Below, in pieces: positions 661 through 30,199 of a DNA stretch of 64,000 bases. The position numbers and the translations under genes are program-made. The stretch is from Heptranchias perlo (lineage: Eukaryota): contig NC_090363.1 in NCBI RefSeq assembly GCF_035084215.1, positions 11,346,001 through 11,410,000 on the forward strand, written 5' to 3'. The notes under the pieces were generated by a model, which had not been told where the DNA came from, searched no databases, and worked only from the letters and a program-made list of their open reading frames with translations. How positions within the stretch are numbered: position 1 is the stretch's first letter; each line of letters starts with the position of its first letter.

Positions 661-1850
661 AAGCGTGGCCCCAGACGAACAATTGGGTTAAATGAATCAC
701 TGTAAAGTTTATTTGTTTGATATAACAAGGGTAAATGTGAAAAAAAAAACAGTAAAAAGGTCGCGTGCCTTCAGAAGAGTGAATTTTAGAAAAAGAGCCA
801 GAGCACTCAGAGAGGAGAAAGTTAACACTGGAACCGGAAAATAAATAACAGAAGGAATGGATTGGCTGAAGACCATTTTTCTTCCAGAGAAATGGAAATA
901 AATCCTTGCATAAAGAATCAGAAACATAACAACATTGAGAATAAAATGAACAAACAAGGCAGAAAATAAGCAAAGGCGAAGCAGGAATATCACAACAAGG
1001 ACATTGATGACTGATTCCTCCCATTTAGTCAATTGCAGAAACCATTTAAGGTGCAGTGAGGTATTTATTTTATATCCAGATAATTAATGTCTCTTCTCGA
1101 GCACAACTTTGCAGGACTTTCAGAATGGTAAAAAAATGTATTATGATTGTGATTATTATTGTTATTCTCAAATATCATGTCCGTATTTAATATGATAGTT
1201 GATCAAAAAGGAAACACTGGTTATTCTGTTTTAGAGCTCCTCTTATTTGTTAATTTGAATCCCTCAGTAGGAGTGGGTTCAGCGTAGACTGTTTGATTTA
1301 TTTTACGCCACTAAGTTAAGTGTAGATTTTTTATTTTGATGAGATAACCATTCAGGGTATGACGGTGACCGTTGGTCACTCAATCGCTGACCATGTTGAG
1401 CTGCTAAAAATGTGTTAATCGCCCTGGTACTTGAATGAAAGATACAGACGGATGATGACCCATTTTATATTCCTCTCCCAACTTCGATATTGCATCTCAT
1501 GAAGTCAATGCGGTTTACCCTACCACTCTCATAGCTTTTGGATATAATATACACTTTGACTGTTATGTGCTACCGGACTGGTCACATTCAATTCCCCTTC
1601 TTCTACATTTAATCTTTCATTTTTATAACTGGAGCGATGGAGCCTTCGCAGAATTAATTAAAGCACCGTGTTACCAAAAGCAAAATGACGCGATCAAGAT
1701 GCTGCAACGTCGTAACAGTTTCAGAGCGGGGGATTAGTTAGCCTGAGAATGCCCAGTGGAGCCTCGATTTTCGCACTGCCTCATTAAGTGATCGTGCTTT
1801 AGTCATTTATTACTTTATTCATTGATTTGGAAAATAAATATGTTCTAATA

Positions 1851-1930
1851 TGTTTGTTCGAAGGCCCGTTGCTAATGCCAGGTCTTATGTAAAACCACTG
1901 TCTCCCTGTGGGATTGGCTGGTGTATAAAA
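1851..1930 (+). promoter_or_regulatory. Core promoter of GPCR-A: forkhead-like TGTTTGTT, TAAT, D-box-like TTATGTAA, reverse CCAAT and TATA box
   Basis: TGTTTGTT 1851-1858, TAAT 1873-1876, TTATGTAA 1885-1892, ATTGG 1913-1917, TATAAAA 1924-1930. Same spacing upstream of GPCR-B and GPCR-C. Confidence 0.65.
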
Positions 1931-2004
1931 CAGCTCCTGTTTCGATGCATTGTCTTTGTGTCCAAACCAGACTCTTGTTTCCACGATTGTCTGGTCTACA
2001 GGAA

Positions 2005-3724
2005 ATGGGACGAACAGAAGTTGTGTACGAATCAGTCATTTGCTATCCAATTCTTGCAATTATTGGTGTTCCCGGTAAGCAATAACAAGCATTCATTATT
2101 TGGACCATCATTTCAATGAATTATTGCTTTGACTATGCGCTGTTTGTATCTATATCTTTGTTCCTTATTTGTCCATTTTATGGTAACAGTTTATAGAATA
2201 GAAGTCTCTCACTTCACCTTGTTTACTTTAAAATGACAAATTTGTGGTATTATATAATGTTCCCTAAAAGTATACACCAAAAGCAAGTTCTCCCCTTTGT
2301 TTAACGCCCTGCAATCTGCTGCCTGGTTGAAGTGTGGCCATCAGGTCGAACGTGAGGGTCCGCATGCGAAACATTAACCTATCTTTCTCTTCCATGCCTG
2401 TTGCTCATCTCTAAGATCTAGTTTTTCTGAATCACGTGTATGAATTGGCAACAAATCAATGGCTATTTTACATAACTCTGTTCATTACCTTGCCAGAATG
2501 AAAAGCCTTCTGATCAGTGATGTATCTCCTAAAAGATAATTGACATAATTGTAAAACTGTCTCGGTTAATCAGATGTATCAAACGCGGGGCCAATTCTCA
2601 CCAATTCGTATGCTGTACAATGTATGTTCTGGACTGAGGTCAGTTAATTCAGCAGAGAGCAGGGTGTGAATTTGGCACCATCCAGTTCCGGTTGTCTCAA
2701 GTACCGCTTCCACTGAGAATGAAAGGGTGCCATTTCCCTAACAAGCCTCTGTTCTTACAATTGCGAGATTTTATATCGCCGATCTATTTCTTCATTAATT
2801 CTCTTGTTTTTGCAATTTCTGACAGCGAATCTGATGTCAGTTGTGATCCTGTCCCGGGGAAAGTGCGTTCTCTCCAAAGGAATCACTCGTTACATGGTGG
2901 CCATGGCAATAGCAGATCTATTGGTCTGTATCTTTAATGTATCTGTAGAAAGCATCTTTAGGTATCATTTCCCAAATACATTCTTGAACTACACTTACAC
3001 GTGTCGCTTTAGTGCCATTATACAAGTAGTTAGCCCTCGACTCTCTATCTGGTTCACACTGGCATTCACCTTTGACCGCTTCATAACCATTTGTTGCCAG
3101 AAACTGAAATTAAAATATTGCACTGAAAGAAATGCTGCTATAGTTATCACTGTAGTGTGTGTGCTCAGTATATTGATCAATATTCCTGTTTATTTCCGTT
3201 ATGAGCCCTACTATATTGTTGACGATATACAGTGGGGCTGCCGTACAGCAACAGGTTATTTTTATTTACCGGCATGGATAACTTACAAATGGATTAGCAC
3301 TCTCTCATCCCCATTACTTCCATTCCTATTGTTGTTGGTATTAAATATCCTCACTGCCAGGCACATCTTAGTGGCCAGTAGATCTCGCAGAGCCCTGAAG
3401 AGCCAAAGCATCGGGGAGAACAAAAGTGATCCTGAGATGAAGAGCAGAAGAAGGTCCATCATTCTACTCTTCTCTGTCTCAGGTAGTTTAATTTTGTTGT
3501 CGGCTCCAATTACTGTAATACACATCTCTGTCGGTGTCACGGAAACAGCTAATTTCCAAGGTTCAAGCTCATTTTATTCAGCAATTAGAATCACACTTCT
3601 GTTGTATTATTTGAGCTCCTGCACAAACACGTGCATTTATGCATTGACCCAGAGGAGATTCCGGGAGGAAATGAAGAATACGGTGAAATATCCGTTTACT
3701 CTCATTCTTACATTATTTAAGTAA
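2005..3724 (+). CDS. GPCR-A: class A GPCR, GPR139/GPR142-like, 2 exons (2005-2074, 2826-3724), 322 aa
   Basis: Exon 1 MGRTEVVYESVICYPILAIIGVP ends at a G|GTAAGC donor. Acceptor TTTCTGACAG|CG gives a phase-1 join to ANLMSVVIL. Seven hydrophobic segments, TM2 AIADLL, TM3 FTFDRF, ECL2 WGC, TM7 SCTNTCIY, helix 8 RRFREE. No internal stops. Confidence 0.9.
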
Positions 3725-3929
3725 TGTAAATAACTAAATTGAAATTAAACTCATTTTACCGGTATCTAGCTTCTCTGTTGCCGGTTGATCGGTTCGGCTG
3801 AAGCAGGGGTTCCGCCCATTACTTCTTATCTTTCCAGAACATCAGTTGTCCCACTTTCCAATTTCGCAAGGAGATGGTACTTGTGCTGCTGTTGTGAAAC
3901 TCGCCATGGCGACGTCACAAAACTTCTCT

Positions 3930-5400
3930 CCTGAATGACTTGGCTCTGTTTTTAAGGTTATATCCCTTTCTCCTAGACTCCACTACCAGCGGAAAAAAAT
4001 CATCTTTATCCACCCTATCAATTCTTTTCAAAGTCCTAAAAAGCTCATCAAATCACCCCTTAACCTTCGATATTCCAGGGTGTAAAATCCTAGTTTATGC
4101 AAACTCGTTTAAATAATCAAACCCTTAGTACCATGGTAACATTCTGGCGAATCTGCGCTGCACTTCAATCAAGGCCAATATATCCTTTCTAAGATGCAGT
4201 GCCCGGAACTGTGCACAGTACTCCGGATTTAGTCTGACCGGGACTTTGTATGGCTGCAGCAAATCTTCCTCCTCTACATAGTTTAACCCTCTGGTTATAA
4301 ACGCTAACATTCCATTAGACTTCCTGATTTTTTTTTACCTGACTGCTACGTTTTATTGATCTGTGTACATGGACACCTAAATCTCTTTGGACCACCACTG
4401 TTCCTAGCTTTTTACCATTGAAAGAATATTCGGATGGTTGATCTTTATTTTAACTCCATCTACCCGTCTTTGCTATATATCACTTGATACTTCTACCTGA
4501 TCAAACTATATCTATCTCAGTCTTGAAAGCTCCAATTGCGCCAGCATCCGTAACATTTTGGGTGAGCGCGTTCCATATTTCGTGTGAAAAAGTGCTTTAT
4601 GATTTTGCTCCTGGATGGCCAAGATCTAATTTTAAGATTATGTCCCTTTGTTCTTGATTCCTCCACCAGAGGAAATGATTTCTCTGTATCGACGCTATCA
4701 AATCCCTTTAACGTTATAAATACGTTGATCAGATCACCGTCAATCCCTACACTTAAGGGAATTCAAACCAACTTTATGGAACCTGACTGCATAATTTAGC
4801 CCTTGAAGCCCCATCAGGAGTATCAATGAGGAGGGCATTCAGACCCTCGAGCCTGTTCCACCATTCAAATAGATCATGGCTATTCGGTATCTCAACTCCA
4901 CGAACCGCCTTTGTACAAAATCCCTTAATACCCTAAGCAGAAAATAATCTATCAATCTCAGCTTTAAATTGTCAATAGACACCCAGCCTCAGTAGCTTTT
5001 TGGGGAGACAGTTCTAGATTTCCACTAACCTCGGTGTCAAAAAAGGTTTCCCGGCAACACCTCCGAACGGCCTAGCTCCAATTTTAAGGTTGTGCCCTTG
5101 CACTGGATCCCCCCCCCAACCCCCCCCCCCCCCCCCGCCCAGAAGAAATAGTTGATCTCTATCTATCCTATAATATCCTTTAATCATCTTAAACACTTCA
5201 ATTCGATCGCGCCTGAGTGTTCTATACTCAAGGAAGCACAAGCCGAGTCTATGCAACCTATCCACGTAATTTAACACTTTTAGCCCCGGAATCATTCTGG
5301 TGAATCTGTGCTATACCCACTCGAAGGCCAATATATCCATTCCTTCTTGAGGTGTGGTGCCCAAAAGTGAAGGCAATACTCCTGATGGGATTGGATCAAG
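3930..5400 (-). mobile_element. Stack of old 5'-truncated CR1 LINE 3' fragments
   Basis: Minus-strand translations resemble the CR1 ORF2 C-terminus (LNPEYCAQF...VQRRFARMLP; MIPGLKVLNYVDRLHRLGL...IEVFKMIKG). Confidence 0.75.
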
Positions 5401-5401
5401 A

Positions 5402-6862
5402 ATAGAACCATAGAAGCATAGAAAAGATACAGCACAGAAAGGGGGCCATTCGACCCATTGTGTCCGCGCCGGCTCGTAGAACAACCAGGTGCCCATTCTA
5501 ATCCACCTTCCAGCACCCGGTCCGTAGCCCTGCAGCTTACAGCACTTTAGGTGCAGGTCAAGATACTTTTTAAAAGATTTGAGGGTCCGCGCCTTGACCA
5601 CCAATTCGGGCAGTGAATTCCATACCCCCACCACTCTCTGGGTAAAAAAAAGTTTTTCCTAATGTCCCCTCTCATCCTTCCGCCAATCAGCTTAAATCTA
5701 TGTCCTCTAGTTCTTAAAGTCTCCGCTAGGGGAAACAGGTACTTCCTGTCGACTCAATCTGGGCCCCTCATGATTTTGTACACCTCAATCAAGTCACCCC
5801 TCAGCCTCCTCTGCTCCAAGGTAAACAACCCCAGCCTATCCAATCTCTCCTCGTAGCTGCAATTTTCAAGCCCTGGCAACATTCTTGTAAATCTTCTCCG
5901 CACTCTCTCTCCAGAGTAATTCCGTCCTTCCTGTAATGTGCTGACCAGAACTGCGCACAATACTCCAGATGTGGCGTATCAGCCTTTTCTATAGTTCCAT
6001 CATTACATCCCTACTTTTGTATTCCACAACTCGGCTAGTAACAGAGAGCATTCTGTATGCATTCTTCACACCCTTATCTACCTGTATTGCCACCTTCACG
6101 GACCTGTGCACATGCACTCCAAGGTCCTCACTTCCTCTAACCCTCTCAATATATTCCCGTTTACTGCGTATTCGCTTTTACTGTTTGCCCTCGCTAACTG
6201 CATGACCTCACACTTGTCCGGGCCCACTCCACCAATCCATTGATATCTTCTTGAAGTCTACAGCTATCCTCTTCACTATCAACTACACGACCAGTTTTTG
6301 AGTAGTCTGCAAATTTGCCAATCATGCCCCTTACATTCAAGTCTAAATCATTAATATAAACCACAAACAGCAAGGGACCCAACACTGAGTCCTGTGGCAC
6401 ACCACTGGAAAAGAATTTCAATTCGCAAAGACATCCATCGACTTTTACTCTTTGTTTCCTGTTACTGAGACAATTTTGGATCCAATTCGCCACATTTCCC
6501 TGTATCCCATAGGCTTTTACCTTTTTGTCCAGTCTGCCATGAGGGACCTTGTCAAATGCCTTACTAAAATCCATGTAGCCAACATCCACTGCATTACCCT
6601 CATCAATCCGCCTCATCACTTCCTCAAAGAATTTAGTCAGATTTGTAATGCATCACCTTCACTGAACAAATCCATGCTGACCATCCTTGATCAAACCATG
6701 CCTTTCCAAGTTACAGTTTATCTTATCTCAGTATTGATTCGAATAGTTTGCCCACCACCGAGGTAAGACTGACCGGCCTAAAATTTTTCGGCCTTTCCCT
6801 CGTACCCTTTTAAAACAATGGTACTACGTTTGCAGTCTTCCAGTCCTCCGGTACCTCCCCTG
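5402..6862 (-). mobile_element. Younger CR1 LINE (RT to 3' tail, internally deleted), apparently nested in an older CR1
   Basis: YMDFSKAFDKVPHGRL, SGVPQDSVLGPLLFVVYINDL, KFAD motifs; (CATAGAA)n tail at 5402-5425. The older CR1 sequence resumes after about 6865. Confidence 0.85.
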
Positions 6863-6864
6863 AG

Positions 6865-7420
6865 CTTCAATCTATTCTACTGAATCTATTCAACTGAAGC
6901 ATAACTTCCTCCCCTTTGTAATCCAGCCCCCTTAAGATAAAGACTAACATTCTATTAGCCTTTTTGAATGCTTTTGTACCTGTCAACTAGCTTCTAATGA
7001 TTTATGTGCTTAGACTCTCAGATCTCTTTGCCCACATTGAAATCTATTTGCCAGAGTTTTGACACTCAATTAGCTTTCTATGTCCCTTTGCAAGTTCCTG
7101 CTAGCAACTGCACTATTTACCGGCCCTACTAACTGAGTGTCAACTGCAAACTTGGATTTACAACTCTATTACTTCATCCAAGTCATTAATAAATATGGGG
7201 GAAATGTTGAGGTTCCAGAACAGATCCCCATGGAACACCACTTGTCACATCTCGTCAATTAGAGTGTGCCCCCTTTAGTACCATTCTCTGTTTCCTTTAT
7301 AACCACTTTGCCTTGGGTACATGCCTCTCTGATCTCCATATTTATGCATCGCGCTGCTGCATCATTGCTGTCAGTGGGTCTGTCGACGAATCCAACCAGA
7401 GTCTTAAAGTCCTTTGTTTA
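6865..7420 (-). mobile_element. Old degraded CR1 RT fragment
   Basis: Degenerate GVPWGSVL / INDLDE / KFAVD-like motifs on the minus strand. Confidence 0.6.
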
Positions 7421-8028
7421 TAAAAAGCACACGGGGTCCTGGGCTATATAAATAAAGGCATAGAGTAGAAAAGCAAAGACTAGATGCTAAACCTTCATAA
7501 AGCATTGGTTCGGCCTCAGTTGGAGTGTTGTGTCCAATTCTGGGCACCATGCTGTAGGAAGGATGTGAATGCTTTGGAGAGGGTGAAGATGAGACTTCCC
7601 ACAATGGTACCAGGTTGTGGGACCTCAGTTATGTGGAGAGAATTAGAGAACATAGGATTGTTCCCCTTGGAGCAGAGAAAGTTTATGGAAGATTTTAGAA
7701 GGTGTTCAAAATTATGAATGGTTTTGAAGGAGAAATTGTTTCCACTGGAAGGAGGATCGGTAACCAGAGGACAGAGATTTAAGATATTTGGCAAAAGTAC
7801 GAAGGGGGAGATGAGGAGAAATTATTTTATACAGTGAGTAGTGATGATCTGGAAAATATTGCTTGAAAGGGCGGTGGTAGCAGGATAAATACTTGAAAAG
7901 GAAAAGAATTACAGGGCTTTGGGGAAAGACGTGGGCAGTGGCACTAATGGGATAGCTTTTTCAAAAAGACGGCACAGGCACAATGGGCTGAATGGCCTAC
8001 TTCAGCGCTGTAACGTTCTATGATTCTT
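7420..8028 (+). mobile_element. CR1 LINE 3' fragment
   Basis: MLNLHKALVRPQLECCVQFWAP...; 3' UTR GGGCTGAATGGCCT and TTCTATGATTC tail. Confidence 0.8.
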
Positions 8029-8885
8029 TGTGTTTCTTAATTCTACCAGAGTGTATCCACAGTTTGCTCACCCATACTGATATGCTTCCTTTCAACTGCA
8101 GCAATATTGACTTGTAGCAATATTGCTAATCCTCCTCTTTTCCCTATTTCCCTGTTATTTGTAAAGTCCTTATAGCCTGAATATTAAGTTCCCATTCTTT
8201 TATTGTCAACTGAGGAGTTCCGTTACTCCGTTCATTTCCCATATCAATTATTTATTCATCCATCATCCAATCTTCCCTAACTTTCTCTTGATATCCCCGC
8301 AATGAAATCTCCTTTTCAATTTTAATTCGCCAAGGTTTCCTGCCAAAGTTTATCATTACTGGTTCATTGCATTTTGAATGAAGTCATTGGCACATCGAAT
8401 GTTGCTCATGTCCTTATTGAGTGGCCTTCGACTCATTCGAACATGAGAAATCTACGCATTCAGATTGCAAGGGAAATTATTTCTGCAGACTTGTTCAACT
8501 GAACCTTTGACAAGATCCAACAAGGTTACCATAATTTGTACTTAGCATCCTGAGCAAATCGCAAATTAAGTCATGGAAGAAAGAACCGAATGAATTTGAT
8601 GTCGTTTTCCTTTTCAAGTTACAATCAGTTTTGAAACTGAATTTACAATGTTATTTTTCTTGGAAATACATAAATAAATACACTTGCTGCACCATCGCAT
8701 GGCTTCCTGCAGCTAAATCAAACCAACGAGTATTCAAAAGTGACTGATAGGCCAAGGGAAATGCGGGCTTTATTATCACCAATTGGATCTGAATTCCCCC
8801 TTTACTCTGCTCCTCAGCTGAACTTCGATTCCAGGGCAAACGCTCAGCCACTGACGCCATTCTTCACCTGTGTGGGGACACAATG

Positions 8886-9042
8886 GGGTAATTTTAAATT
8901 AGCTCACCGGGCAGGAAACCCATGGGATCGGGTGGAATGCCGGCTTTACACTCCGCCCAATATTACTGTGCACTGACTTCAATAGAGAGTAAAATCAGGC
9001 GGGGTGATCAAGTGGGTTTAGGGCGGGTTAGGTTAAAATTGC
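8886..9042. mobile_element. Palindromic MITE (non-autonomous DNA transposon)
   Basis: Ends GGGGTAATTTTAA... and ...GGTTAAAATTGC. Related copies at about 9240-9400, 9485-9615, 26157-26337 and 30740-30983. Confidence 0.55.
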
Positions 9043-10087
9043 TATTGGCGGCCAGTTATACATCTCTCCTGATTCATCGACTTCAATGTTATTAAAAATG
9101 GGGAGGTATGTAAAATGAGCTGTTGTCTCGTTATCACGGGTTTTACACTCTCGCAAAAAGTCAAGATCTCCACCAATATCTTTCCATTGTTTGCCTGATA
9201 TCTTCTCCCATCGAGATCAGAGGGAATATTTGCACGAACCTGAATTTTAATTTGAACTTTCGGCCAAGGTGCAAAACAGATGATATCGGATTGGCCGTCC
9301 ATCATCCATTATTCTTTCTACTGATTTGAGTGAAAGGAAAAAGCGGCGGGTGTATAATGTCCGCCCAACCCGATATCGCCGAAAGTTAAAATTGCCCCGG
9401 TCCGACAGTGTTGAACAACAGGTGATACCGTTCAGCCGCCCGCTATAAACACCGTCCAATCTTCCTCTCGGATGAAGTCCGATGGGATAATTTTAACCGA
9501 ACACACAGTTCGGGAAGTCAATGCAGAATAATAATTGAAGAGGGGTATAAAAACGGTTTTCCTCCTTTTATGCTGTGTGTCTCCCGCCTGATTAGTTAGT
9601 TGAAAATTACCCTCGCGGTTTTACACCCGGCACAGTATACTCGACATATTAATCGCTCCGGGTGCAAAAATAGCATGGCCCCCGATCCCGTCAGTTTCCC
9701 GACGGGCGGGTTAGGTTATAATTGCTACACTATGGAAAGAAAAACCAGGCGGGCTGTTCAATGGTCAGCCTGTTCGATATTGTCTGTTATACACTCCCGC
9801 TGAAATTGAACTTTTGGCCTTGTGTTTTGGTCCCAAAAATCAACAATAGTGAAAAGTTGAGATGTTTCACTTACTATCAGCAATATGTTTTGTTATTAAA
9901 CCTGAAAAGGTGAGTTTCAGAAAAACGGTATTAATACCGTCTCCTTCCGCTAATGGAAAGATGGGAGGAGCTGATTCTGGGAAAGGATGAGATGCGATGG
10001 ACGGGAAGACCTGCCTCATCGAACTGATCAGATGGCAACGGTGAACTGAGATACCGGGCAATGAACTCTGACTGAATCCGGTTGTTT

Positions 10088-11736
10088 TCATTGCTTCAAT
10101 AATTTAATAATGAGAGTAAATGGATATTTAACCATATTCTTCATCTCCTCTCGGAATCTCCTCTGGGTCAATGCATAAATGTACGTATTTGTGCAAGAAC
10201 TCAAATACATCAACAGAAGGCAGAATCTAATTGCCAAATAAAGTGAGTTTGGACCTTTCAAAGTAATTGTCTCCGTGAGGTCCAAACAGAGGTCAAGTAC
10301 CACAACTGGCGTCCACAACACAATAAAACTCCCCGAGATAGCGAAGAGCAGAATGATGGATGTTCTTCGGTTCTTTATCTCAGGATCACTGCTGTTCTCC
10401 GCATTGTTGCGGCTCTTCAGGGCTCTCCGAGATCTACTGGCCACTAAGATGTGCCTAACAGTCAGAGAATTTAACAGCAATAACAAGGGCAGTGGTATTA
10501 ATGGGACTGAGAGATTAGCGATCCATTTGTAAGCTCCCCATGCCAGTGAAGAATAATATCCTGATACTGTACGGCAGCCCCACGGTATATCGTCAATAAT
10601 AGAGTAGGGCTCGTAACGGAAATAAACAGGAATATTCATCAAAAAGCTAAGCGCACACACGATCGTTAAAACCATGGTGGCGGTCCTTTCGGTGCAATAT
10701 TTTAATTTTAGTTTCTGACAACAAATGGCTACGAAGCGGTCAAAGGTGAACGACACTGTGGACCAGACAGAGAATTGGATGCTCGATACTTGTATAACGG
10801 TATTAAGACTACAAACGTAAGTGTGGCTCAAGAATGAATCCAGGAAATGATACCGAAAGACGTTTTCCACAGTTACATTAAAGATACAGACCATTAGATC
10901 TGCTATTGCCATGGTTACCATGTAACGAGTGATTCCTTTGGAGAGGCCGCACTTTCCCCGGGAGAGGATCACAATTGACATCAAGTTCGCTGTAAGAAAT
11001 TAGAAAACAAGAAAATTAGCAAAGAAATAGATCAGCGATGTGAACGGAATTGAGCGGGTATGAACAACCAGACCGAGGAGACTTGTTCCGTGATTCGATG
11101 GGTGTTACAGGTCCCTCCCAGTCTCACTGGATACGGCCCTTCCTGCCGATGCCGCATACAACCTTCTGTGAAACAGACGTTGGTTTATTTCAGAATCTGA
11201 CACGATGACAATTAACACAGTGTCCGATACATTCGACACATCGGAGTCTGAAACACAGAATCTTGTAAATGCACAAATGTGTCAACACCTGGAAGAGAAA
11301 AACTCGGTGTTCGGGCCCGCCCGTGTTCGCTCTGATGGTGACACAGGGGCAATTTTGAAGGCGGATGAGCCAATTCTTAAATTAGCCAATGATGACCACA
11401 ACCTGCAACCCGTGACGCAGCCACAGCACAGAACAAGTCATTGAAAGAGCAAGAAAAGTTCCGATAACCGACGGCCGATGATGATAACGGTCATAACACA
11501 AAAGTTGTCATTTTCAAGTAAATAAGGAAACGTGAGAGACTTCTATTCAATAAATTGTCACCAGAAACAGGACAGTCACGGGAGAAAGAGATGGAGACAA
11601 ACAGCAGGTTAAAAAAAACAACAATGCATTGAAAGAATGGCCTTCCAAAATTAATAATCGGTTATTATTGCTTACCAGGAATACCGATACTTGCAACAAT
11701 CGGATAACAAATCACTGTGCTGTCTGCTCCTCCCAT
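10088..11736 (-). CDS. GPCR-B: class A GPCR, GPR139/GPR142-like, 2 exons (11736-11676, 10989-10088), 320 aa
   Basis: Exon 1 MGGADSTVICYPIVASIGIP ends at a G|GTAAGC donor. Acceptor TTTCTTACAG|CG joins to ANLMSIVIL. 7TM with FTFDRF, WGC and SCTNTYIY. Close inverted paralog of GPCR-A, including intron and promoter similarity. Confidence 0.9.
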
Positions 11737-11817
11737 TTTACACGAAAACAAATTTCGAAATGTTGGGCGAAAGGATCCGGCTGGTGCACTGAGGCCATGC
11801 ATTGAAAGCAGCCCTGA

Positions 11818-11896
11818 TTTATACAGGAGCCAGATCTCCATTGAGACACTGAAGTTACATAACACCTCTCATTAACGGCAGGCAATTCAACAAACA
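11818..11896 (-). promoter_or_regulatory. Core promoter of GPCR-B (same module as GPCR-A)
   Basis: On the minus strand: TGTTTGTT 11896-11889, TAAT 11874-11871, TTATGTAA 11862-11855, TATAAA 11823-11818. Confidence 0.65.
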
Positions 11897-12394
11897 CTAC
11901 TAAGATAGTTCTTTCCAAATCAATGAGCAAAGTGAACTCCACAGTCACTAATTGGGGATTGTGATAAACCAGGTAGCACTTGGCTCACTAATCCCCTAGA
12001 CCTGAATCTATTGACTTGTCATAATATCCTGATTCATTGGCGGCTCTTGGTAGGAATGTGCTTTATTAGTCCTTCGATTACAATCCACTTTAACCTACTG
12101 ATTGTCTTTCTAATAGGTCCGATATGTACTAACGTGACCGGCGGGTACGGACCGGATTCAGGTCTGACATTCGTTTCACACTCGGTCGGATTTTACTATC
12201 TATTAACTTCAATAGAAAGTAAAAGCGGACCGGGTGTAAATCAGGCATTACAACGAAACCGAGTGATATGGAGAGACACTGGCAGGAGGAGATATATAGA
12301 GCTGTGACTAAGTACTGCGGGTGATAAATGGACACCCGAAAAGACGTTTATACAAAAAGGGTTGACTCTATGCAGTTTGTGATACAGGAGTTGA

Positions 12395-12755
12395 TCAAGG
12401 AAGTGGGCTTGGCTCAATTATCTTCCACTGCTTCCTCAATAACCTTTCAACCCTCATAAGGTCAGAAATGGGGCTGGTCGCTGATGATTGCTCAGTTTGC
12501 AGCTCCATTCACAATTCCTCAGATAATGAAACGGTCCATGCCCACATGCAGCAAGAGCTGACTAATATCTGGCCTTGGGCTGCTACTTCCACGCCACACA
12601 AGGCGGTGACCATCTCTATCAAGGGAAAAACTAACCACCTCCCCGTGACATTGAATGGCATTACCATCGTTGAATGCCCCACCACAAACATCTTGAAGGG
12701 GGGTCACCATTGACCAAAACTCAACTCGATCAGCCACATAAATGCGGTGGCCATG
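12395..12755 (+). mobile_element. L2/CR1-group LINE RT fragment (family of 21105-22110)
   Basis: Translation ADDCSVCSSIHNSSDNETVHAHMQQEL...LTLNGITIVECPT matches the minus-strand copy at 21.8-22.1 kb. Confidence 0.65.
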
Positions 12756-12781
12756 TGAAATGAGATGAGAAGTTTCACTAC

Positions 12782-13615
12782 AGGAGCCGAGCCGAGCGGA
12801 GGGAGCGTCCGATAAAAGGCGGGATTTCAGAGCGCTGAGAGGAGCCGAGCCGAGCGGAGGGAGCGTCCGATAAAAGGCGGGATTTCAGAGCGCTGAGAAC
12901 AGCTGAGAGGAGCGGAGGGAGCGTCCCATAAAAGGCGGGATTTCAGAGCGCTGAGAACAGCTGAGAGGAGCCGAGCCGAGCGGAGGGAGTGTCCGATAAA
13001 AGGCGGGATTTCAGAGCGCTGAGAACAGCTGAGAGGAGCCGAGCCGAGCGGAGGGAGCGTCCGATAAAAGGCGGGATTTCAGAGCGCTGAGAGGAGCCGA
13101 GCGGAGCGGAGGGAGCGTCCGATAAAAGGCGGGATTTCAGAGCGCTGAGAACAGCTGAGAGGAGCCGAGCCGAGCGGAGGGAGCGTCCGATAAAAGGCGG
13201 GATTTCAGAGCGCTGAGAACAGCTGAGAGGAGCGGAGCGGAGGGAGCGTCCGATAAAAGGCGGGATTTCAGAGCGCTGAGAACAGCTGAGAGGAGCGGAG
13301 CGGAGGGAGCGTCCGATAAAAGGCGGGATTTCAGAGCGCTGAGAACAGCTGAGAGGAGCCGAGCCGAGCGGAGGGAGCGTCCGATAAAAGGCGGGATTTC
13401 AGAGCGCTGAGAACAGCTGAGCCGAGCGGAGGGAGCGTCCGATAAAAGGCGGGATTTCAGAGCGCTGAGAACAGCTGAGAGGAGCCGAGCCGAGCGGAGG
13501 GAGCGTCCGATAAAAGGCGGGATTTCAGAGCGCTGAGAACAGCTGAGAGGAGCGGAGCGGAGGGAGCGTCCGATAAAAGGCGGGATTTCAGAGCGCTGAG
13601 AGGAGCCGAGCGGAG
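12782..13615 (+). repeat. CR1 5' UTR tandem monomer array (13 units, about 59-70 bp)
   Basis: Repeating GAGCGGAGGGAGCGTCCGATAAAAGGCGGGATTTCAGAGCGCTGAGA(ACAGCTGAGA)GGAGCC. Confidence 0.9.
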
Positions 13616-13934
13616 CTGCGACCGAGTTCGAAGTGACGTCAGGAATCAGATCGGGACGCGACACAGGGGAGGCACCTGATTGGTGAGTAGGTTCAGGTGA
13701 GTATTTCTCCTTCTCTGCAGTAACTGAAGTAAAAGGAAAGGGAAGGTCTGCAGGTCTTATAGGAAGTAGCGTTTATTTTTTAGTGAATCAAGGTCCCTAG
13801 TGTAGTTAACATTCTCTAAATTGAGAACAATTTAAAGGAGTAAACTCCTTAAAGGGAGTGGTAAGTAGTTTTTCTTTCCTTTTTTTTTTCTCTTGACATT
13901 GTAGTTGTTCTTAAGCTAATTTAAGGGTTAAGTC

Positions 13935-14882
13935 ATGGCAGGAGATCCCAGCGCCGTGTCATGTTCCTCTTGTGGGATGTGGGAATTCAGGGCTCCTTCC
14001 TGTATCCCTGATTCCTTCACCTGCGGGAAGTGTGTCCAGCTGCAGCTATTGTTTGACCGCTTGACGGCTCTGGAGCTGCGGATGGACTCACTTTGGAGCA
14101 TCCGCGATGCTGAGAAAGTCGTGGATAGCACGTTCAGTGAGTTGGTCACACCGCAGATAAAAATTACTGAGGGAGATAGTGAATGGGTGACCAACAGACA
14201 GAGGAAGAGTAGGAAGGCAGTGCAGGGGTCCCCTGCGGTCATCTCCCTCCAAAACAGGTATACCGTTTTGGATACTGTTGGCGGAGATGGCTCACCAGGG
14301 GAAGGTGGCAGTGGCCAGGTTCATGGCACCGTGGCTGGCTCTGCTGCACAGGAGGGCAGGAAAAAGAGTGGCAGAGCTATAGTGATAGGGGACTCGATTG
14401 TAAGGGGAATAGACAGGCGTTTCTGCGGACGCAACCGAGACTCCAGGATGGTATGTTGCCTCCCTGGTGCAAGGGTCAAGGATGTCTCGGAGCGGCTGCA
14501 GGACATTCTGGAGGGGGAGGGTGAACAGCCAGTTGTCGTGGTGCATATAGGCACCAACGATATAGGTAAAAAACAGGATGAGGTCCTACAAGCTGAATTT
14601 AGGGAGTTAGGAGTTAAACTAAAGAGTAGGACCTCAAAGGTAGTAATCTCAGGATTGCTACCAGTGCCACGGGCTAGTCAGAGTAGGAATGACAGGATAG
14701 CTAAGATGAATACGTGGCTTGAGAGATGGTGCAAGAGGGAGGGATTCAAATTCCTGGGCCATTGGAACCGGTTCTGGGGGAGGTGGGACCAGTACAAATT
14801 GGACGGTCTGCATCTGGGCAGGACTGGAACCAATGTCCTAGGGGGAGTGTTTGCTAGTGCTGTTGGGGAGGGTTTAAACTAA
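13935..14882 (+). CDS. CR1 ORF1p: N-terminal zinc finger, coiled coil, SGNH/GDSL esterase domain
   Basis: CSSC...CGKC zinc finger; SGNH blocks IVIGDS, PGARV, HIGTND, DGLHL. Intact, 315 aa. Confidence 0.9.
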   Translation: MAGDPSAVSCSSCGMWEFRAPSCIPDSFTCGKCVQLQLLFDRLTALELRMDSLWSIRDAEKVVDSTFSELVTPQIKITEGDSEWVTNRQRKSRKAVQGSPAVISLQNRYTVLDTVGGDGSPGEGGSGQVHGTVAGSAAQEGRKKSGRAIVIGDSIVRGIDRRFCGRNRDSRMVCCLPGARVKDVSERLQDILEGEGEQPVVVVHIGTNDIGKKQDEVLQAEFRELGVKLKSRTSKVVISGLLPVPRASQSRNDRIAKMNTWLERWCKREGFKFLGHWNRFWGRWDQYKLDGLHLGRTGTNVLGGVFASAVGEGLN

Positions 14883-17830
14883 TGTGGCAGGGGGATGGGA
14901 ACCGATGCAGGAAGTCAGTGGGAAATAAAGTGGTGACAGAAACAAAAGGCAGTAAGGGAGAGTGTACAGAACATGACCGGACAGATGGTCTGAGAAAGCA
15001 GGGCAAAGACCAAGGGAAGACTAGATTAAACTGCATTTATTTCAATGCATGAAGTCTGATGGGCAAGGCAGATGAACTCAGGGCATGGATGGGTACATGG
15101 GACTGGGATGTTATAGCTATTACTGAAACATGGCTAAGGGAGGGGCAGGACTGGCAGCTCAATGTTCCAGGGTACAGATGCTATAGGAAAGATAGAGCAG
15201 GAGGTAAGAGAGGAGGGGGAGTTGCGTTCTTGATTAGGGAGAACATCACGGCAGTAGTGAGAGGGGATATATCCGAGGGTTCGCCCACTGAGTCCATATG
15301 GGTAGAACTGAAAAATAAGAAGGGAGAGATCACTTTGATAGGATTGTACTACAGACCCCCAAATAGTCAACGGGAAATTGAGGAGCAAATATGTAAGGAG
15401 ATTACAGACAGCTGCAAGAAAAATAGGGTGGTAATAGTAGGGGACTTTAACTTTCCCAACATTGACTGGGACAGCCATAGCATTAGGGGCTTGGATGGAG
15501 AGAAATTTGTTGAGTGTATTGAGGAGGAATTTCTCATTCAGTATGTGGATGGCCCGACTAGAGAGGGGGCAAAACTTGACCTCCTCTTGGGAAATAAGGA
15601 AGGGCAGGTAACAGAAGTGTTAGTGAGGGATCACTTTGGGACCAGTGATCATAATTCCATTAGTTTTAAGATAGCTATGGAGAAGGATAGGTCTGGCCCA
15701 AAAGTTAAAATTCTAAATTGGGGAAAGGCCAATTTTGATGGTATTAGACAGGAACTTTCAGAAGTTGATTGGGAGAGTCTGTTGGCAGGCAAAGGGACGT
15801 CTGGTAAGTGGGAGGCTTTCAAAAGTGTGTTAACCAGGGTTCAGTGTAAGCACATTCCTTATAAAGTGAAGGGTAAGGCTGGTAGAAGTAGGGAACCTTG
15901 GATGACTCGGGAGATTGAGGCACTAGTCAAAAATAAGAAGGAGGCATATGACATGCATAGCCAGCTGGGATCAAGTGGATCCCTTGAAGAGTATAGAGAT
16001 TGCCGGAGTAGAGTTAAGAGAGAAATCAGGAGGGCAGAAAGGGGATATGAGATTGCTTTGGCAGATCAGGCAAAGGTGAATCCAAAGAGCTTCTACAAAT
16101 ACATAAAGGGCAAAAGGGTAACTAGGGAGAGAGTAGGGCCTCTTAAGGATCAACAAGGTCATCTATGTGCGGAACCACAAGAGATGGGTGAGATCCTGAA
16201 TGAATATTTCACATCGGTATTTACGGTTGAGAAAGGCATGGATGTTAGGGAACTTGGGGAAATAAATAGTGATGTCTTGAGGAGTGTACATATTACAGAG
16301 AGGGAGGTGCTGGAAGTCTTAACGCGCATCAAGGTAGATAAATCTCCGGGACCTGATGAAATGTATCCCAGGACGTTATGGGAGGTTAGGGAGGAAATTG
16401 CGGGTCCCCTAGCAGAGATATTTGAATCATCCACCGCTACAGGTGAGGTGCCTGAAGATTGGAGGGTAGCAAATGTTGTGCCTTTGTTTAAGAAGGGCGG
16501 CAGGGAAAAGCCTGGGAACTACAGACCAGTGAGCCTGACATCTGTAGTGGGTAAGTTGTTAGAGGGTATTCTGAGGGACAGAATCTACAGGCATTTGGAG
16601 AGGCAGGGACTAATTAGGAACAGTCAGCATGGTTTTGTGAGAGGAAAATCATGTCTCACGAATTTGATTGAGTTTTTTGAAGGGGTAACCAAGAAGATAG
16701 ATGAGGGCTGTGCAGTAGACGTGGTCTACATGGACTTCAGCAAAGCATTTGACAAGGTACCGCATGGTAGGTTGTTACATAAGGTTAAATCTCATGGGAT
16801 CCAAGGTGAGGTAGCCAATTGGATACAAAATTGGCTTGACGACAGAAAACAGAGGGTGGTTGTCGAGGGTTGTTTTTCAAACTGGATGCCTGTGTCCAGC
16901 GGTGTGCCTCAGGGATCGGTGCTGGGTCCGCTGTTATTTGTTATTTATATTAATGATTTGGATGAGAATTTAGGAGGCATGGTTAGTAAGTTTGCAGATG
17001 ACACCAAGATTGGTGGCATTGTGGACAGTGAAGAAGGTTATCTAGGATTGCAACGGGATCTTGATAAATTGGGCCAGTGGGCCGATGAATGGCAGATGGA
17101 GTTTAATTTAGATAAATGTGAGGTGATGCATTTTGGTAGATCGAATCGGGCCAGGACCTACTCCGTTAATGGTAGGGCGTTGGGGAGAGTTATAGAACAA
17201 AGAGATCTAGGAGTACAGATTCATAGCTCCTTGAAAGTGGAGTCACAGGTGGATAGGGTGGTGAAGAAGGCATTCAGCATGTTTGGTTTCATTGGTCAGA
17301 ACATTGAATGCAGGAGTTGGGATGTCTTGTTGAAGTTGTACAGGGCATTGGTGAGGCCACACTTGGAGTACTGTGTACAGTTCTGGTCACCCTATTATAG
17401 AAAGGATATTATTAAACTAGAAAGCGTGCAGAAAAGATTTACTAGGATGCTACCGGGACTTGATGGTTTGACTTACAGGGAGAGGTTAGACAGACTGGGA
17501 CTTTATTCCCTGGAGATTAGGAGGTTAAGGGGTGATCTGATAGAAGTCTATAAAATAATGAGGGGCATAGATAAGGTCGATAGTCAAAATCTTTTCCCAA
17601 AGGTAGGGGAGTCTATAACGAGGGGGCACAGATTTAAGGTGAGAGGGGAGAGATACAAAAGGATCCAGAGGGGCAATTTTTTCACTCAAAGGGTGGTGAG
17701 TGTCTGGAACGAGCTGCCAGAGGCAGTAGTAGAGGCGGGTACAATTTTGTCTTTTAAAAAGCATTTGGACAGTTACATGGGGAAGATGGGTATCGAGGGA
17801 TATGGGCCAAGTGCAGGCAATTGGGACTAG
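14882..17830 (+). pseudogene. CR1 ORF2p (APE endonuclease + reverse transcriptase) with one in-frame TGA at 15050-15052; 923-aa open frame from 15059
   Basis: ATG at 14882 overlaps the ORF1 stop (TAATG) and is in frame with 15059, reading LNCIYFNA*SLMGK. Motifs AITETW, GDFN, SDH, YRPVSLTS, DFSKAFD, GVPQGSVLGP, FADD. Confidence 0.85.
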
Positions 17831-18627
17831 CTTAGTGGTATAAACTGGGCGACATGGACATGTTGGGCCGAAGGGCCTGTTTCCATGTTGTAACTTCTAT
17901 GATTCTATGATTCTATGTGCTCCCTAAAATTGTAACGATAGGATAAATCCTTCCCAAACGCACCACGCTCAGAGATTCTCAAGTGGACGACGACAGTATT
18001 TGCAACACAACTGGAAACCGACATAATTGGGTTCTTGGGTTCCGGAAATTGTTAGAGAGCGTGATTCCGCTTCCGAACCCACCACACCCACTCCCCACCT
18101 CTCCAAGTTCCATCCTCAACTTCTCATTTCAAGATATATTCATATTAGGAAGCTTTATGGCTCCTTGTCATGAAGCAGTGTGATCTGTAGAAGTCTCCAA
18201 GCTTCTGTCATCAAGGGAAATCGGGGAATTCTATCCCGCAGAAAGAACATCGCGGGATGTACTCGGGTGGAATGTGAAATGATGGTGAGCTCTGTCCATC
18301 CGCTAATTAATGGCGAGCGACACTCTGCAAATTGCCAACATCCTGTCAATCTCACTCAGGCTGTTTGGGGAAAGATAACGAAAACTCCTAGCAGTTCAGT
18401 AGTTGCTGAGGAATCTTCTTGTTCCAGAATAGAGAGAGCTTTACTCTGCATTCACCGTGTGCTTTATTTGCAATGATTCATGTGGATGTTGGAATATAAT
18501 CTGCTCCATTGCCTTTAATTTTTCGCATCTCACCTTGTACATAAAACATTCTCATATTTCCGATGAGAAATAACTACTTGATCGCTTTTTTTGCACTGGT
18601 GAGCCACGTTTTTTATGACCTCGGAAG

Positions 18628-19055
18628 CTGTGGTTCAGTGTGTAGTACACTCGCCTCTGAGTCAGAAGACCTTGGGTCCATTGATCCACTTGAGGGACCA
18701 TCAGTGCACAATCTACGCTGACAGTTCCAGTACAGTACTGCGAGGACGCTGCACTGTCCGAGGTGCTGTCTTTCCAATGAGACGTTAAACCGAATCTTGG
18801 CACAGTTTCGAAGAGTTGAGGAATTCTCCGTATTGCCCTGGACAGTATTTACCCCTCAACCAACACCACTAGAAACAGATTAGCTGGTCATTATTACACT
18901 GCTGTTCGTGGATTTGCTGTGTACAAATTGGCTGCTGTCTTTCCTACACAATAACAGTGACTGCACATCAAAAGTGCTCAATGGGCTTTAAAGCACTTTG
19001 AGAGGCACTGAGGTCGAGAAAGGCGCTATTTTAATTCAAATCCTATCTTTTCTTT
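18628..19055 (+). mobile_element. tRNA-headed Deu-domain SINE (SacSINE1-like)
   Basis: tRNA-like head (TGGTTCAGTG...GCCTCTGAGTCAGAAG), central CAGTACTG/GCACTGTC core, GAAAGGCGCTAT tail. Confidence 0.75.
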
Positions 19056-19059
19056 TAAA

Positions 19060-19700
19060 TTACTTTCGTTGATCAACCCAGTGCAGCACTCTCCATTTTG
19101 ATTATGCCCTGTCTTGAAGACAAGTGCCTATTGTTATTAACATTAACATTTTCTGCTTTCCCAAAGTTTAGCAGGATATTGTGAACCCCATTTTAAGGCC
19201 ACTATCGCCTCTTCCTTTTTTCATTTGCTTGCTGCTCCTCAGAACCACCATCTCCTGCCATAGCACTAGTTTCCACGTGTATGATGATAAAAGTCCACAG
19301 TGCCATTCATTTGATTCCAAAAGCACTTCGGTTTTTCGACTTCCTATCTGAAATCAAGTCATGGATGAGCCAGAAGTGCATCCAATCAATGATGACAAAA
19401 CCAAATCCACCCACTGCGCTCCCATCAAAAATTCTGTCCCCTTGTCCCTAACTTCCAGGTTGCTTGCTCAGGCTGAACCAGATCATGTGCAAGAAAAATG
19501 CCCTTGTTGACTCCAGCTGAATTTCAAACCACATGCCCTGCACAAAAAATAGCCTAGCTCCATCAAAACAATATCGCCCACTTCCGTCCGACCTCATCCT
19601 CTCTACCAATAAAGTCAGATCCTTACGCATATCAATTGATTGCAGTTCGCAATCTCTTGAGTTCCAAACCGTGTCCTTGTATTGCACTTCCTTACCCTAC
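19060..19700 (+). mobile_element. Highly degraded L2-like LINE fragment
   Basis: 19350-19405 reads IKSWMSQ...NDDKTK, resembling L2 RT post-ADD motifs. Confidence 0.35.
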
Positions 19701-19705
19701 CCTGT

Positions 19706-20990
19706 GTAGGATAGTGTGTAATCGAATAGGTCAAAAGATTGGCATCGGTAAAGGGTATCATGGGATAGTTAGCATTGTAAAGGAGAAAGTGTCAAAACCA
19801 TTGGCGTAATATGGGCGTGATTAATTGGGCAGAAGGTGTAGAATATCCGATGCAAAATTAGGAAAAATGGCTTCACGATACAGGTCAATACTAACATGAA
19901 CATGAATTTATTCTGTGTGACACAGGATAACACGTGATTTAGATTAGGTCGTTAAGATTCTGTAGGATTCTTTCCGAGGAAAGACAGGATGTGTTGTAAA
20001 CGTTATGGCAATTTAAGAAAATCGGGTTTCATTAAAGGCTCCGTGTAAAGAATCGTGGCCTAGTTTGGAGATAACATTCTCGTTTAGATTACTGCTATCC
20101 TGGGAAAAGTGTGAATGTTTATAACTGTTCAAAATTGTCTTATCTTCTCCTGAGAAGAGGCGAAGACCTCCACAGTCTAGTGAGCACGAAGTGGTCAAAC
20201 ATTGGCACATACAGGTGCAAGAACGTATAATACATAAGGATCACATGAGAATAATCTCAGAATTGACAGGTTTCCTCATCCGTTGCCTATTCCTGTCCCA
20301 AAACCAGTATCTTTCTACTGGAGGCGTGTTCCACTGACCCTTCCGTGACCTTCGGCTGAGGGGAGGGGTATTAATGATTCATCTACTGCCCTGTTATTGC
20401 GGAGGGGGCGGCAATGCCTCATCAGGCAATAAATGCTGGCCTTGCCAGCGACGCCAACATCCCATAATTGAATAAAAATAAAAGGTGGGAGGATTGGGGG
20501 GTAACTGTGCCACATCTGACGTCGTGTTATCGGGCATGATAACGAAATCCCCGACACGCACGCGTGGACAGAGGGAGGGCAATAGGGGTATAATCGCATC
20601 CCAACTAACAGGAGTCCAGAAATCTCATTTTAGGATTGTCTATTCGTTTACCTTGGAATTCGTGAACAAATTAATCTTCAAGAGGAAAATGCGGTATAAG
20701 TGTATTCCCTATAAATGATACAGCTACCAGTCATAAAACAAGACACTTAACGATTTCCTTTGAGCAGATTGAAACGGTAGTTCGATAGTTTTCCTTAGGA
20801 ACGTCTCTGCTGTGACTGTGAGATGCTGAGAATTGGTCAGTCCCACACGCCCCATGTTACATTCCCCACGATGGTTCAGTGCCTCTTTTGACTGAAAGTC
20901 GCAGCTGACTCATGGCCGATGCTGATTATTCACCTTTGGTTTTGAAGTGTCATTTCATAAAATCAGTGCGATGTGCCGCACTACCCCTAC
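19706..20990 (+). mobile_element. Possible solo LTR or unclassified insertion
   Basis: Ends (T)GTAGGATAG...CTACCCCTAC form an imperfect inverted repeat, flanked by TGT on both sides. Internal TATAAAT at about 20710. Contains a nested LINE tail at about 20390-20482. Confidence 0.3.
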
Positions 20991-21104
20991 TGTTTGTAGA
21001 TATTATCCATAAGTTGACTGCATTGTGGTGAAAAATCGGCTCGCATTTTATTCCTGCTCTATCATGCAGCACTACTTTGTAATCGAAACACCGTTTATTT
21101 TTAT

Positions 21105-22110
21105 TCAATTATGGGATGTTGGCATCGCCGGCAAGGCCAGCATTTATTGCCCCTCCCTAATTGCCCTTGGGAAAGTGGTGGAGAGCCGCCTTCTTGAACC
21201 GCTGCAGTCCGTATGGTGAAGCAACTCCCACAGTGCTGTCAGGTAGGGAGTTCCAGGATTTTGACCAAGCGACAGTGAAGGAACGGCGATATATTTCCAA
21301 GTCAGAATTGTGCATGACTTGGAGGGGAACGTGCAGGCGGTGATGTTCCCATGTGCCTGCTGCCCTTGTCCTTCTAGGTGGTAGAGGTCTCGGGTTTGGA
21401 AGGTGCTGTTGAAGAAGCCTTGGCGAGTTACTGCAGTGCATCTTGTAGATGGTACACACTGCAGCCACTGTGCGCCGGTGGTGGAGGGAATGATTGTTTC
21501 GGGTAGTGGATGGGGTGCCAATCAAGCGGACTGCTTTGTCCTGGACGGTGTCGAGCTTCTTGAGTGTTGATGGAGCTGCTGTCATCCAGGCAAGTGGAGA
21601 GTATTCCATCACACTCCTGACTTGTGCCTTGTAGATGGTGGAAAGGCTTTGGGGAATCAGGAGGTGAGTCACTCGCTGCAGAATACCCAGCCTCTGACCT
21701 GCTCTTGTAGCCACGGTAATTATGTGGCTAGTCCAGTTATGTTTCTGGACAATGGTGACCCCCACCCACCCCCCCAGATGTTTATGGTGGGGGATTCGGC
21801 GATGGTAATGCCATTGAATGTCAAGGGAGGTAGTTAGACTCTCCCTTGTTGGGGATGGTCATTGCCTGGAACTTGTCCAGCGAATGTTACTTGCCACTTA
21901 TCAGCCGAGGCCTGGCTGTTGACCAGGTCTTGATGCATGCGGGCATGAGCTGCTTCGTTATCTGAGGGGTTGCGAATGGAACTGAACACAGCGCAATCAT
22001 CAACGAACTTCCCCATTTCTGACCTTATGATGGAGGGAAGATCATTGGTGAAGCAGCTGAAAGTAGTTGGGCCTAGCACACTGCCCTGAGCAACTCCTGC
22101 AGCAATGACA
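21105..22110 (-). mobile_element. 5'-truncated L2/CR1-group LINE (RT C-terminus + 3' tail)
   Basis: GVAQGSVLGPTTFSCFTNDLP, FVDD, YKAQVRSVMEY, HRRTVAAVCTIYKMH; tail GGGCAATAAATGCTGGCC...CATCCCATAATTGAATAAAA. Confidence 0.85.
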
Positions 22111-22287
22111 TTCTTTCCCAAGAAAAGTTCAGCTCATTGCATGCAGTCAGGATGCGGTAACTTAGCAACAGATTGAGAGGTGGAGAGATAAATCAGCTGG
22201 AAATTTCTCGTATATTCTGCACCGTGCATTCCTCCACTGAGAGATCAGTGAGGTCACTATATTTTTGCAGAGAGAATTGTTGTAATG

Positions 22288-22370
22288 TGTTTGTTAAAAC
22301 GCCTGTAACTAATATCAGTTGTTATGTAACTCCCACTGCCCCACTGGAGAATTCTCTCAGATATTAATAA
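22288..22370 (+). promoter_or_regulatory. Core promoter of GPCR-C (same module as A and B)
   Basis: TGTTTGTT 22288-22295, TAAT 22310-22313, TTATGTAA 22322-22329, TATA-like ATATTAATAA 22361-22370. Confidence 0.6.
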
Positions 22371-22444
22371 GGATCTGTGTCCCATTCATTGCCTCACTGT
22401 GTCAGTCGGACCTGTCATTCACATGAGCTTTCCTCTTTCTGAAA

Positions 22445-30193: not shown

Positions 30194-30199
30194 ATATTT

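Follow-up and report, generated by a model that had tools for sequence, protein, structure and literature searches.

In mouse, V1R genes form 'promoter subfamilies', in which an island of upstream homology outlives the surrounding non-coding DNA of tandem G-protein-coupled receptor (GPCR) genes (Stewart and Lane 2007, PMC1955453), and mouse olfactory receptor genes, also arranged in tandem clusters, have promoters with short factor sites and, in many cases, a TATA box near the start (Young et al. 2011, PMC3247239). The latter paper also warns that duplicated promoters give false motif enrichment. The locus described here has features in common with both systems. It lies in a 64-kb window of the genome of Heptranchias perlo (all positions are counted from the first letter of this window) that holds three intact two-exon class A GPCR genes, referred to as receptors A, B, and C, and a receptor remnant, D. 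Each intact gene is preceded by a module of the form TGTTTGTT-N14-TAAT-N8-TTATGTAA, which a sequence-only reading of the window had taken, together with a TATA box, for a family-wide code of forkhead, homeodomain, D-box, and TATA sites at fixed spacing.

We find a real phylogenetic footprint in duplicated promoters, smaller than the one claimed: the upstream regions of the three genes are homologous, the two 8-mers TGTTTGTT and TTATGTAA are invariant beyond the local background, a TATA box is present in A and B, and two of the four proposed motifs carry signal. A pattern search placed the module at the same positions as the earlier reading, starting at 1851 (+), 11896 (−), and 22288 (+), and returned no others in the 64 kb at a tolerance of 3 mismatches, a total of 3 matches where shuffles that ignore common descent predict 0.01. 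The ATG had been placed 120–126 nt from the start of the D-box, and the measured distances agree (120 nt in A, 126 in B, and 123 in C). The claimed TATA box at N31 was recovered in A, at 1924, and in B, at 11823, as TATAAA lying 39 nt past the start of the D-box. The features are as follows.

1665..2004, plus strand: upstream region of A with homologous counterparts in B and C, the putative proximal promoter plus 5' untranslated region (UTR); three-way alignment, z 19–23 for the last 170 nt
1851..1858, plus strand: TGTTTGTT of A, forkhead-like invariant 8-mer (the family label is presumed)
1873..1876, plus strand: TAAT of A, invariant, within chance
1885..1892, plus strand: TTATGTAA D-box of A, in the context CTTATGTAAA (D-box#2 in PMC6687812)
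1924..1930, plus strand: TATAAAA box of A, 81 nt before the ATG
2005..2074, plus strand: receptor A, coding exon 1; spliced frame open, 322 aa
2826..3724, plus strand: receptor A, coding exon 2 (7tm_1); spliced frame, Pfam match, NCBI protein match
11737..12076, minus strand: upstream region of B, by alignment
11889..11896, minus strand: TGTTTGTT of B
11871..11874, minus strand: TAAT of B
11855..11862, minus strand: TTATGTAA D-box of B, in the context GTTATGTAAC
11817..11823, minus strand: TATAAAT box of B, 87 nt before the ATG
11676..11736, minus strand: receptor B, coding exon 1; spliced frame open, 320 aa
10088..10989, minus strand: receptor B, coding exon 2 (7tm_1); spliced frame, Pfam match
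22105..22444, plus strand: upstream region of C, with weak alignment of its distal part (A-C z 5.3, B-C z 0.0)
22288..22295, plus strand: TGTTTGTT of C
22310..22313, plus strand: TAAT of C
22322..22329, plus strand: TTATGTAA D-box of C, in the context GTTATGTAAC
22362..22370, plus strand: TATTAATAA of C, degenerate TATA-like site, 83 nt before the ATG
22445..22514, plus strand: receptor C, coding exon 1; spliced frame open, 329 aa, start and length as in P0001
24929..25848, plus strand: receptor C, coding exon 2 (7tm_1); spliced frame, Pfam and protein matches
30194..31025, plus strand: receptor remnant D, B-like, 3' end and flank only, without the promoter module

The module does not recur independently. 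The three upstream regions align over approximately 340 nt before the ATG and are homologous by duplication over this whole length, so that duplicated rather than shuffled DNA is the right null. Every gene pair can be aligned over the final 170 nt ahead of the ATG (~70% identity). At the two ends of the intron and in the 3' flank, alignment is limited to A with B (z −0.6 to 2.8 for A-C and B-C); the proximal upstream region has therefore outlasted the other non-coding DNA in the comparison of A/B with C, which is the pattern that marks the V1R islands. Synonymous divergence (dS) was 0.27–0.36 between A and B and approximately 1.0–1.2 between C and either of them, and four-fold degenerate sites agreed at 63/84 (A-B), 40/69 (A-C), and 39/68 (B-C), with 28 of 55 invariant in all three genes. 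The spacers, described earlier as diverged, are not unrelated: 8 of the 22 spacer columns are invariant, and the gene pairs share 11, 12, and 11 of the 22 spacer bases. All 20 motif columns are invariant in register, although the contrast of 20/20 with 8/22 is no test, because the motif columns were picked for their invariance.

A fairer comparison is with the run lengths of the alignment itself. The longest invariant runs were 8, 8, 4, 3, and 3 columns in 9 of 9 alignments, and two or more runs of 8 were rare under column permutation (P 0.0016–0.0094 across the 9 alignments) and remained so when columns were permuted within base class (P 0.0058 for two 8-runs), A/T columns being invariant at 50/90 and G/C columns at 23/86. 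Neutral simulation gave P values of 0.001 and 0.006 over 170 nt, and 0.003 and 0.019 over 300 nt, with C placed at distances of 1.0 and 0.8, respectively. The two 8-mers are thus under apparent constraint, and the proposed contrast between motif and spacer columns survives for them, in three genes, and fails for TAAT. Outside the 8-mers there was 1 invariant run of at least 4 columns where 2.65 were expected, each upstream region holds 4–5 TAAT/ATTA words, and the bases that follow TAAT differ among the genes; TAAT does no better than chance, is probably incidental, and drops out as a homeodomain element of a code. The fixed spacing drops out with it: with 6 internal gap events in 211 columns, a gap-free span of 42 columns has P ~0.30, so that equal spacing is unremarkable under common descent and is inherited rather than shown to be required. 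Since only 5% of the 42-column windows in the alignment lack gaps, and the stretch between the forkhead-like site and the TATA box contains no more than one 1-nt indel, a mild length constraint is possible.

Two further words, GGATTA (1731–1736 in A, 11989–11994 in B) and ATTGAT (1821–1826, 11919–11924), are common to A and B upstream of the module; we take the first to be Otx/Pitx-like and the second Onecut/Cux-like. They were not counted, because C lacks them and identical runs of the same length occur between the introns of A and B. On the minus strand at 2468–2487, within the intron of A, there is a second TAAT-N8-TTATGTAA at the same spacing, without TGTTTGTT and with no counterpart in B or C.

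As to the factors that might bind the two 8-mers, TGTTTGT at −154 (A), −160 (B), and −157 (C) fits RYAAAYA, which we take to be the forkhead core, and TGTTTGTT is on this basis a probable forkhead site, a Sox-like reading of its AACAAA being less likely. The identification of the second 8-mer as a D-box was upheld: TTATGTAA is, in 3/3 genes, an exact match to D-box#2, a functional DBP/E4BP4 site in mouse liver (PMC6687812), and in B and C it sits within the fuller GTTATGTAAC. The chance that a random 8-mer is on the D-box list is ~0.001, and because 33 8-mers from that list occur within this 64 kb, the presence of the word is in itself little evidence. The palindrome TTACGTAA, a close relative, is bound by C/EBPalpha, C/EBPbeta, and NFIL3 (PMC10941009), and a D-box response to light or reactive oxygen species (ROS), described for zebrafish clock genes, has been lost in cavefish and mammals (PMC6123470). 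No CACGTG-type E-box was found in the 340-nt upstream regions. Co-expression and induction by light or ROS, both raised in the earlier reading, would follow from nothing but the name of the motif, and control by light or ROS is unsupported here.

The reading that we favor, with a probability of roughly 0.6, is that each gene has a TATA-type proximal promoter with its start ~50–58 nt before the ATG, bound by PAR-bZIP/NFIL3 or C/EBP factors on TTATGTAA and by a forkhead factor on TGTTTGTT, and that the genes share expression in a cell type. Under this proposal, an ancestral GPR139-related gene would have had an RNA polymerase II proximal promoter that tandem duplication copied along with it, and purifying selection would have kept two factor-binding sites in the copied promoter. 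TBP is predicted to bind the site 81–87 nt before the ATG and to set a start at the predicted position, with no intron in the 5' UTR; a bZIP dimer of the PAR/NFIL3/C/EBP group on TTATGTAA, 39–40 bp upstream of the TATA box, may drive or gate transcription; and a forkhead factor, or less likely a Sox factor, on TGTTTGTT, 34 bp further up, may restrict expression to one cell type. Upstream ATGs at −60 in A and at −66 and −62 in B fall just 5' of the predicted start, as would be expected of such a promoter. Because A/B and C have the two factor sites in common, the two subfamilies are probably expressed in the same or related cells; we would tentatively guess at endoderm-derived epithelial sensory or endocrine cells, from the presumed labels of the motifs, namely forkhead, D-box, and an Onecut-like site in A/B, and from the amino-acid ligands of GPR139.

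Mispredicted N-termini of protein models gave a limited further view of the upstream region. Among 359 proteins, 133 had a recognizable exon 1 and 25 an extension. Starting where the D-box ends and taking in the TATA-like site, 25 codons of a sawfish C-type model (P0037) run co-linear with C; 10 of 25 residues are identical, and the best window fits 30 of 36 attainable bases, the maximum in 300 shuffles being 27. The three ray extensions that match C above chance (P0037 and two others, P 0.003 and 0.013) fit C slightly better than A or B: 30 versus 26/28, 28 versus 24/25, and 27 versus 26/25 bases. None of the 7 ray C-type extensions covers the D-box cleanly, and no peptide pattern spanning both 8-mers was found in the 359 proteins. 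In each gene the D-box shares the reading frame of the ATG, which stays open in A and B, and the upstream region itself was considered as a coding N-terminal extension; this was rejected on account of a stop in the frame of C and the in-frame stop arising from TAAT.

The following observations weigh against the promoter reading. Three sequences were compared, in a region picked after the fact. At the lowest distance calibration for C (0.62), the neutral P rises to 0.034 over 170 nt and 0.10 over 300 nt, and were C only 0.40 away, as it would be if the promoters were younger than the coding regions, it would be 0.28–0.57. The identity of the A-B promoters (118/192) is lower than that of the A-B introns (136/178). 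From the forkhead-like site to the ATG, promoter sites supporting the pairs AB, AC, and BC number 21:22:26, against 99:23:26 at third positions of exon 2 (Fisher P 9e-7), and the nearly gap-free part up to the TATA box behaves alike (10:9:12, P 5e-4). The promoter genealogy is star-like, whereas exon 2 strongly groups A with B, so that coding distance may overstate the age of the promoters; the simulation P values are weakened by this and the permutation P values are unaffected. Old promoter exchange, later homogenization of the A/B coding regions, and strongly uneven constraint are possible causes, for a choice among which three sequences are insufficient. The N31 spacing to a TATA box fails in C, where TATAWA at the common offset is replaced by the non-TATA TATTAATAA at 22362, 40 nt past the D-box start (N32), and C carries an ATG, out of frame, at −22. 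P0121, the 397-aa NCBI model of receptor A, joins an exon at 475–549 to position 2002. Finally, the two residues of P0037 that lie over the first six bases of the D-box fit 3 of the 6, meaning that the D-box is lost there or that the model splices at that point, and 4 of the 7 ray C-type extensions did not match C above chance.

Several of these observations also bear on passive inheritance, under which the upstream DNA was simply duplicated, or later gene-converted, and the invariant words are lucky survivors picked post hoc. The star-like genealogy, so unlike that of exon 2, is what it would leave behind, as is the near-equal identity of non-motif promoter columns across the pairs (58, 56, and 59%); the neutral P of 0.28–0.57 at a distance of 0.40 would fit it as well, and promoter conversion has been proposed for the mouse V1R paralogs (PMC1955453). 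Against this, the permutation test conditions on the observed identity and still yields P <0.01, one of the two invariant runs is an exact D-box, and the slightly better fit of the three ray extensions to C than to A/B suggests that the C copy is old. We consider passive inheritance unlikely and retain a constrained promoter as the better account.

How far such a promoter extends through the receptor family depends on where A, B, and C lie within it. All three exon 2 products match Pfam 7tm_1, and exon 2 of A and of C is 100% identical to H. perlo NCBI proteins named 'probable G-protein coupled receptor 139', a name that is loose. Used as a single query, C matched human GPR139 at E 8e-8, below the ghrelin receptor, a match not decisive alone; a 45-member family profile searched against PDB placed human GPR139 first (E 5.5e-28, 101 bits; next receptor 81.5), making it the closest characterized receptor to the shark family in this search. 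One-to-one orthology with GPR139 is not supported, the single-sequence match being weak and the paralogs many per species. The nearest named relatives in bony vertebrates (amphibians and sturgeon) are ~27–33% identical. Among them, an orphan receptor labeled GPR139 that is conserved across amphibians and present in sturgeon (P0311, P0360–P0379) is the closest. Database names of members of this very large GPR139-related family of sharks and rays vary widely (melatonin, opioid, C5a, and cephalotocin receptor-like).

In a FastTree phylogeny of all 214 matched clusters plus A, B, and C, receptors A and B fell in a 57-leaf clade (support 0.999), within which B clusters with sequences of ray (Narcine), houndshark, and sawshark origin (0.978), and C fell in a 44-leaf clade (1.0) that includes sawfish, skates, and stingrays. 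At least 50 of the 214 listed clusters were named H. perlo (hand count), and among these 23 distinct contig sizes occur. Six further genes of A/B type (P0122–P0127) share one H. perlo contig with the receptors studied here. Both subfamilies hold sharks and rays, and the split between A/B and C therefore appears older than the divergence of sharks from rays, for which an age of >270 My (million years) is quoted (PMC11979771). A quick IQ-TREE phylogeny of 94 sequences (91 drawn from the 307 near-full-length sequences among 383, plus A, B, and C) recovered the A/B and C clades as sisters (SH-aLRT 79.7) and placed their split deep, close to where one large branch of the family begins. By our count, the two clades account for 2 of the 65 near-full-length representatives, clustered at 50% identity, of an 82-leaf shark-type clade, 'shark-type' being a label that for most representatives without a species name rests on similarity. 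A/B and C are, on these trees, two old sister subfamilies, and the promoter evidence covers three genes from two sister subfamilies of a very large family rather than the whole of it.

A family-wide code of fixed geometry, in which forkhead, homeodomain, D-box, and TATA sites drive co-expression of every receptor in the repertoire, perhaps in response to light, ROS, or the clock, would account for the 20 motif columns invariant in register, for the single 1-nt indel between the forkhead-like site and the TATA box, and for their persistence across a split near the base of a large branch. TAAT and the spacing, on the other hand, are at chance level, the two subfamilies are co-clustered sisters amounting to 2 of 65 representatives, V1R promoter homology is limited to subfamilies or co-clustered pairs in the published comparison (PMC1955453), and the upstream regions lack both an E-box and an O/E-like site. 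We regard this code as quite improbable. A further extrapolation, which we hold to be just as doubtful, is that the forkhead-like site and the D-box might be the ancestral promoter core of a large shark and ray GPR139-related expansion, confining dozens to hundreds of receptors to a single cell type that senses chemicals or nutrients, with promoter exchange contributing to the uniformity of the core.

It is very unlikely that the element is no core promoter, with transcription starting at an upstream exon and the conserved words serving as an enhancer within an intron or as an element of the 5' UTR. ATG-TAA within the D-box might act as a start-stop, several models besides P0121 enter at 'E-M' just before the start, and C has no canonical TATA box; A and B have canonical TATA boxes at equal offset. 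P0121 also takes in sequence upstream beyond the window, and its exon at 475–549 adjoins a repeat (363–475); that exon may be an artefact of prediction and is probably a misprediction. A splice acceptor is not shared, as the 40 nt ahead of the ATG in B contain no AG and the nearest AG in C is at −19. It is extremely improbable that the module is what remains of a transposable element that the ancestral gene had captured, for although LINE (long interspersed nuclear element) fragments lie just upstream in B and C, in a self-comparison of the window the upstream region of A matched only that of B, and the pattern occurs nowhere else in the window with 3 mismatches allowed.

The LINE fragments are reverse-transcriptase sequences at 12385–12751 (B) and 21094–22107 (C) that point away from the gene and end within ~10 nt of the same point upstream of the promoter. 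They were tried as a shared insertion that could serve as a neutral clock, and this was dropped, since identities of 73% (B) and 87% (C) to a third copy indicate that the insertions are probably independent. Between B and C, at 13935–17830, lies a near full-length LINE with a 315-aa esterase-type ORF1 (open reading frame 1) and a 923-aa endonuclease/reverse-transcriptase ORF2, presumably of CR1 type. Members of a short, palindromic MITE-like (miniature inverted-repeat transposable element) repeat family occur near the receptor genes at 8884–9006, 12175–12240, 26157–26333, and 30736–30952. Remnant D consists of the last 59 codons and a 3' flank, 501/639 of which is identical to that of B, and has no 5' part. 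The first exons of two closely related TRIM genes, encoding RING and B-box domains, are at 38898–39377 and 51717–52451 (both minus strand); they have ~50 nt before the ATG in common and do not carry the receptor module. The window had no matches in Rfam when searched for structured RNA.

The claim that the module is undescribed stands, in that literature searches found no description of the module or of the receptor expansion; some were swamped by general shark papers, and most subscription journals lay outside their scope. Term look-ups in the catshark atlas, a GPR139 review, and the whale shark and catshark chemoreceptor papers likewise gave no mention. As a phylogenetic footprint, the two candidate sites in these orphan receptor promoters have persisted for >270 My (age from PMC11979771). 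The receptor family is of larger interest and may deserve more attention than the module. If found throughout the family, the two sites would indicate which cell type expresses it and open its function to testing. A relative paucity of GPCRs in cartilaginous fishes is noted in the whale shark paper (PMC8455134), and very few OR, TAAR, and V1R genes are reported from these animals (PMC10116579); if a chemoreceptor reading were true, the family would be a further repertoire in animals thought poor in class A chemoreceptors, with a sequence handle for its cells.

Set against described systems, the shark receptors share the GPR139/GPR142 group by profile, near which an orphan of fish and coelacanth has been named GPR210 (PMC6504862), but differ in that the family is multi-copy in sharks and rays. 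The D-box known from DBP and E4BP4/NFIL3 (PMC6687812; PMC10941009; PMC6123470) recurs in the three genes as a candidate site, the same TTATGTAA. The analogy drawn earlier with the homeodomain (HD) plus O/E code of olfactory receptor promoters did not hold up: the O/E (EBF) pattern had 0 matches in the 340-nt upstream regions of all 3 genes, and no homeodomain site exceeds background. The olfactory code, moreover, was defined by enrichment in 314 promoters after recent duplicates had been removed (PMC3247239), whereas here there are three, and they are alignable. The V1R islands are 0.5–1 kb long and lie kilobases upstream behind a 5' UTR intron, with starts mapped by RACE (rapid amplification of cDNA ends), and co-clustered V1R subfamilies (AB and JK) share upstream homology for which gene conversion is suspected (PMC1955453); the shark receptors, of an unrelated family, differ from them in having a region of ~340 nt that abuts the coding exon and a start that is predicted only. 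By analogy, what is seen at this locus appears to be of a known kind, the conservation of promoters among tandem receptor paralogs, as in the V1R genes.

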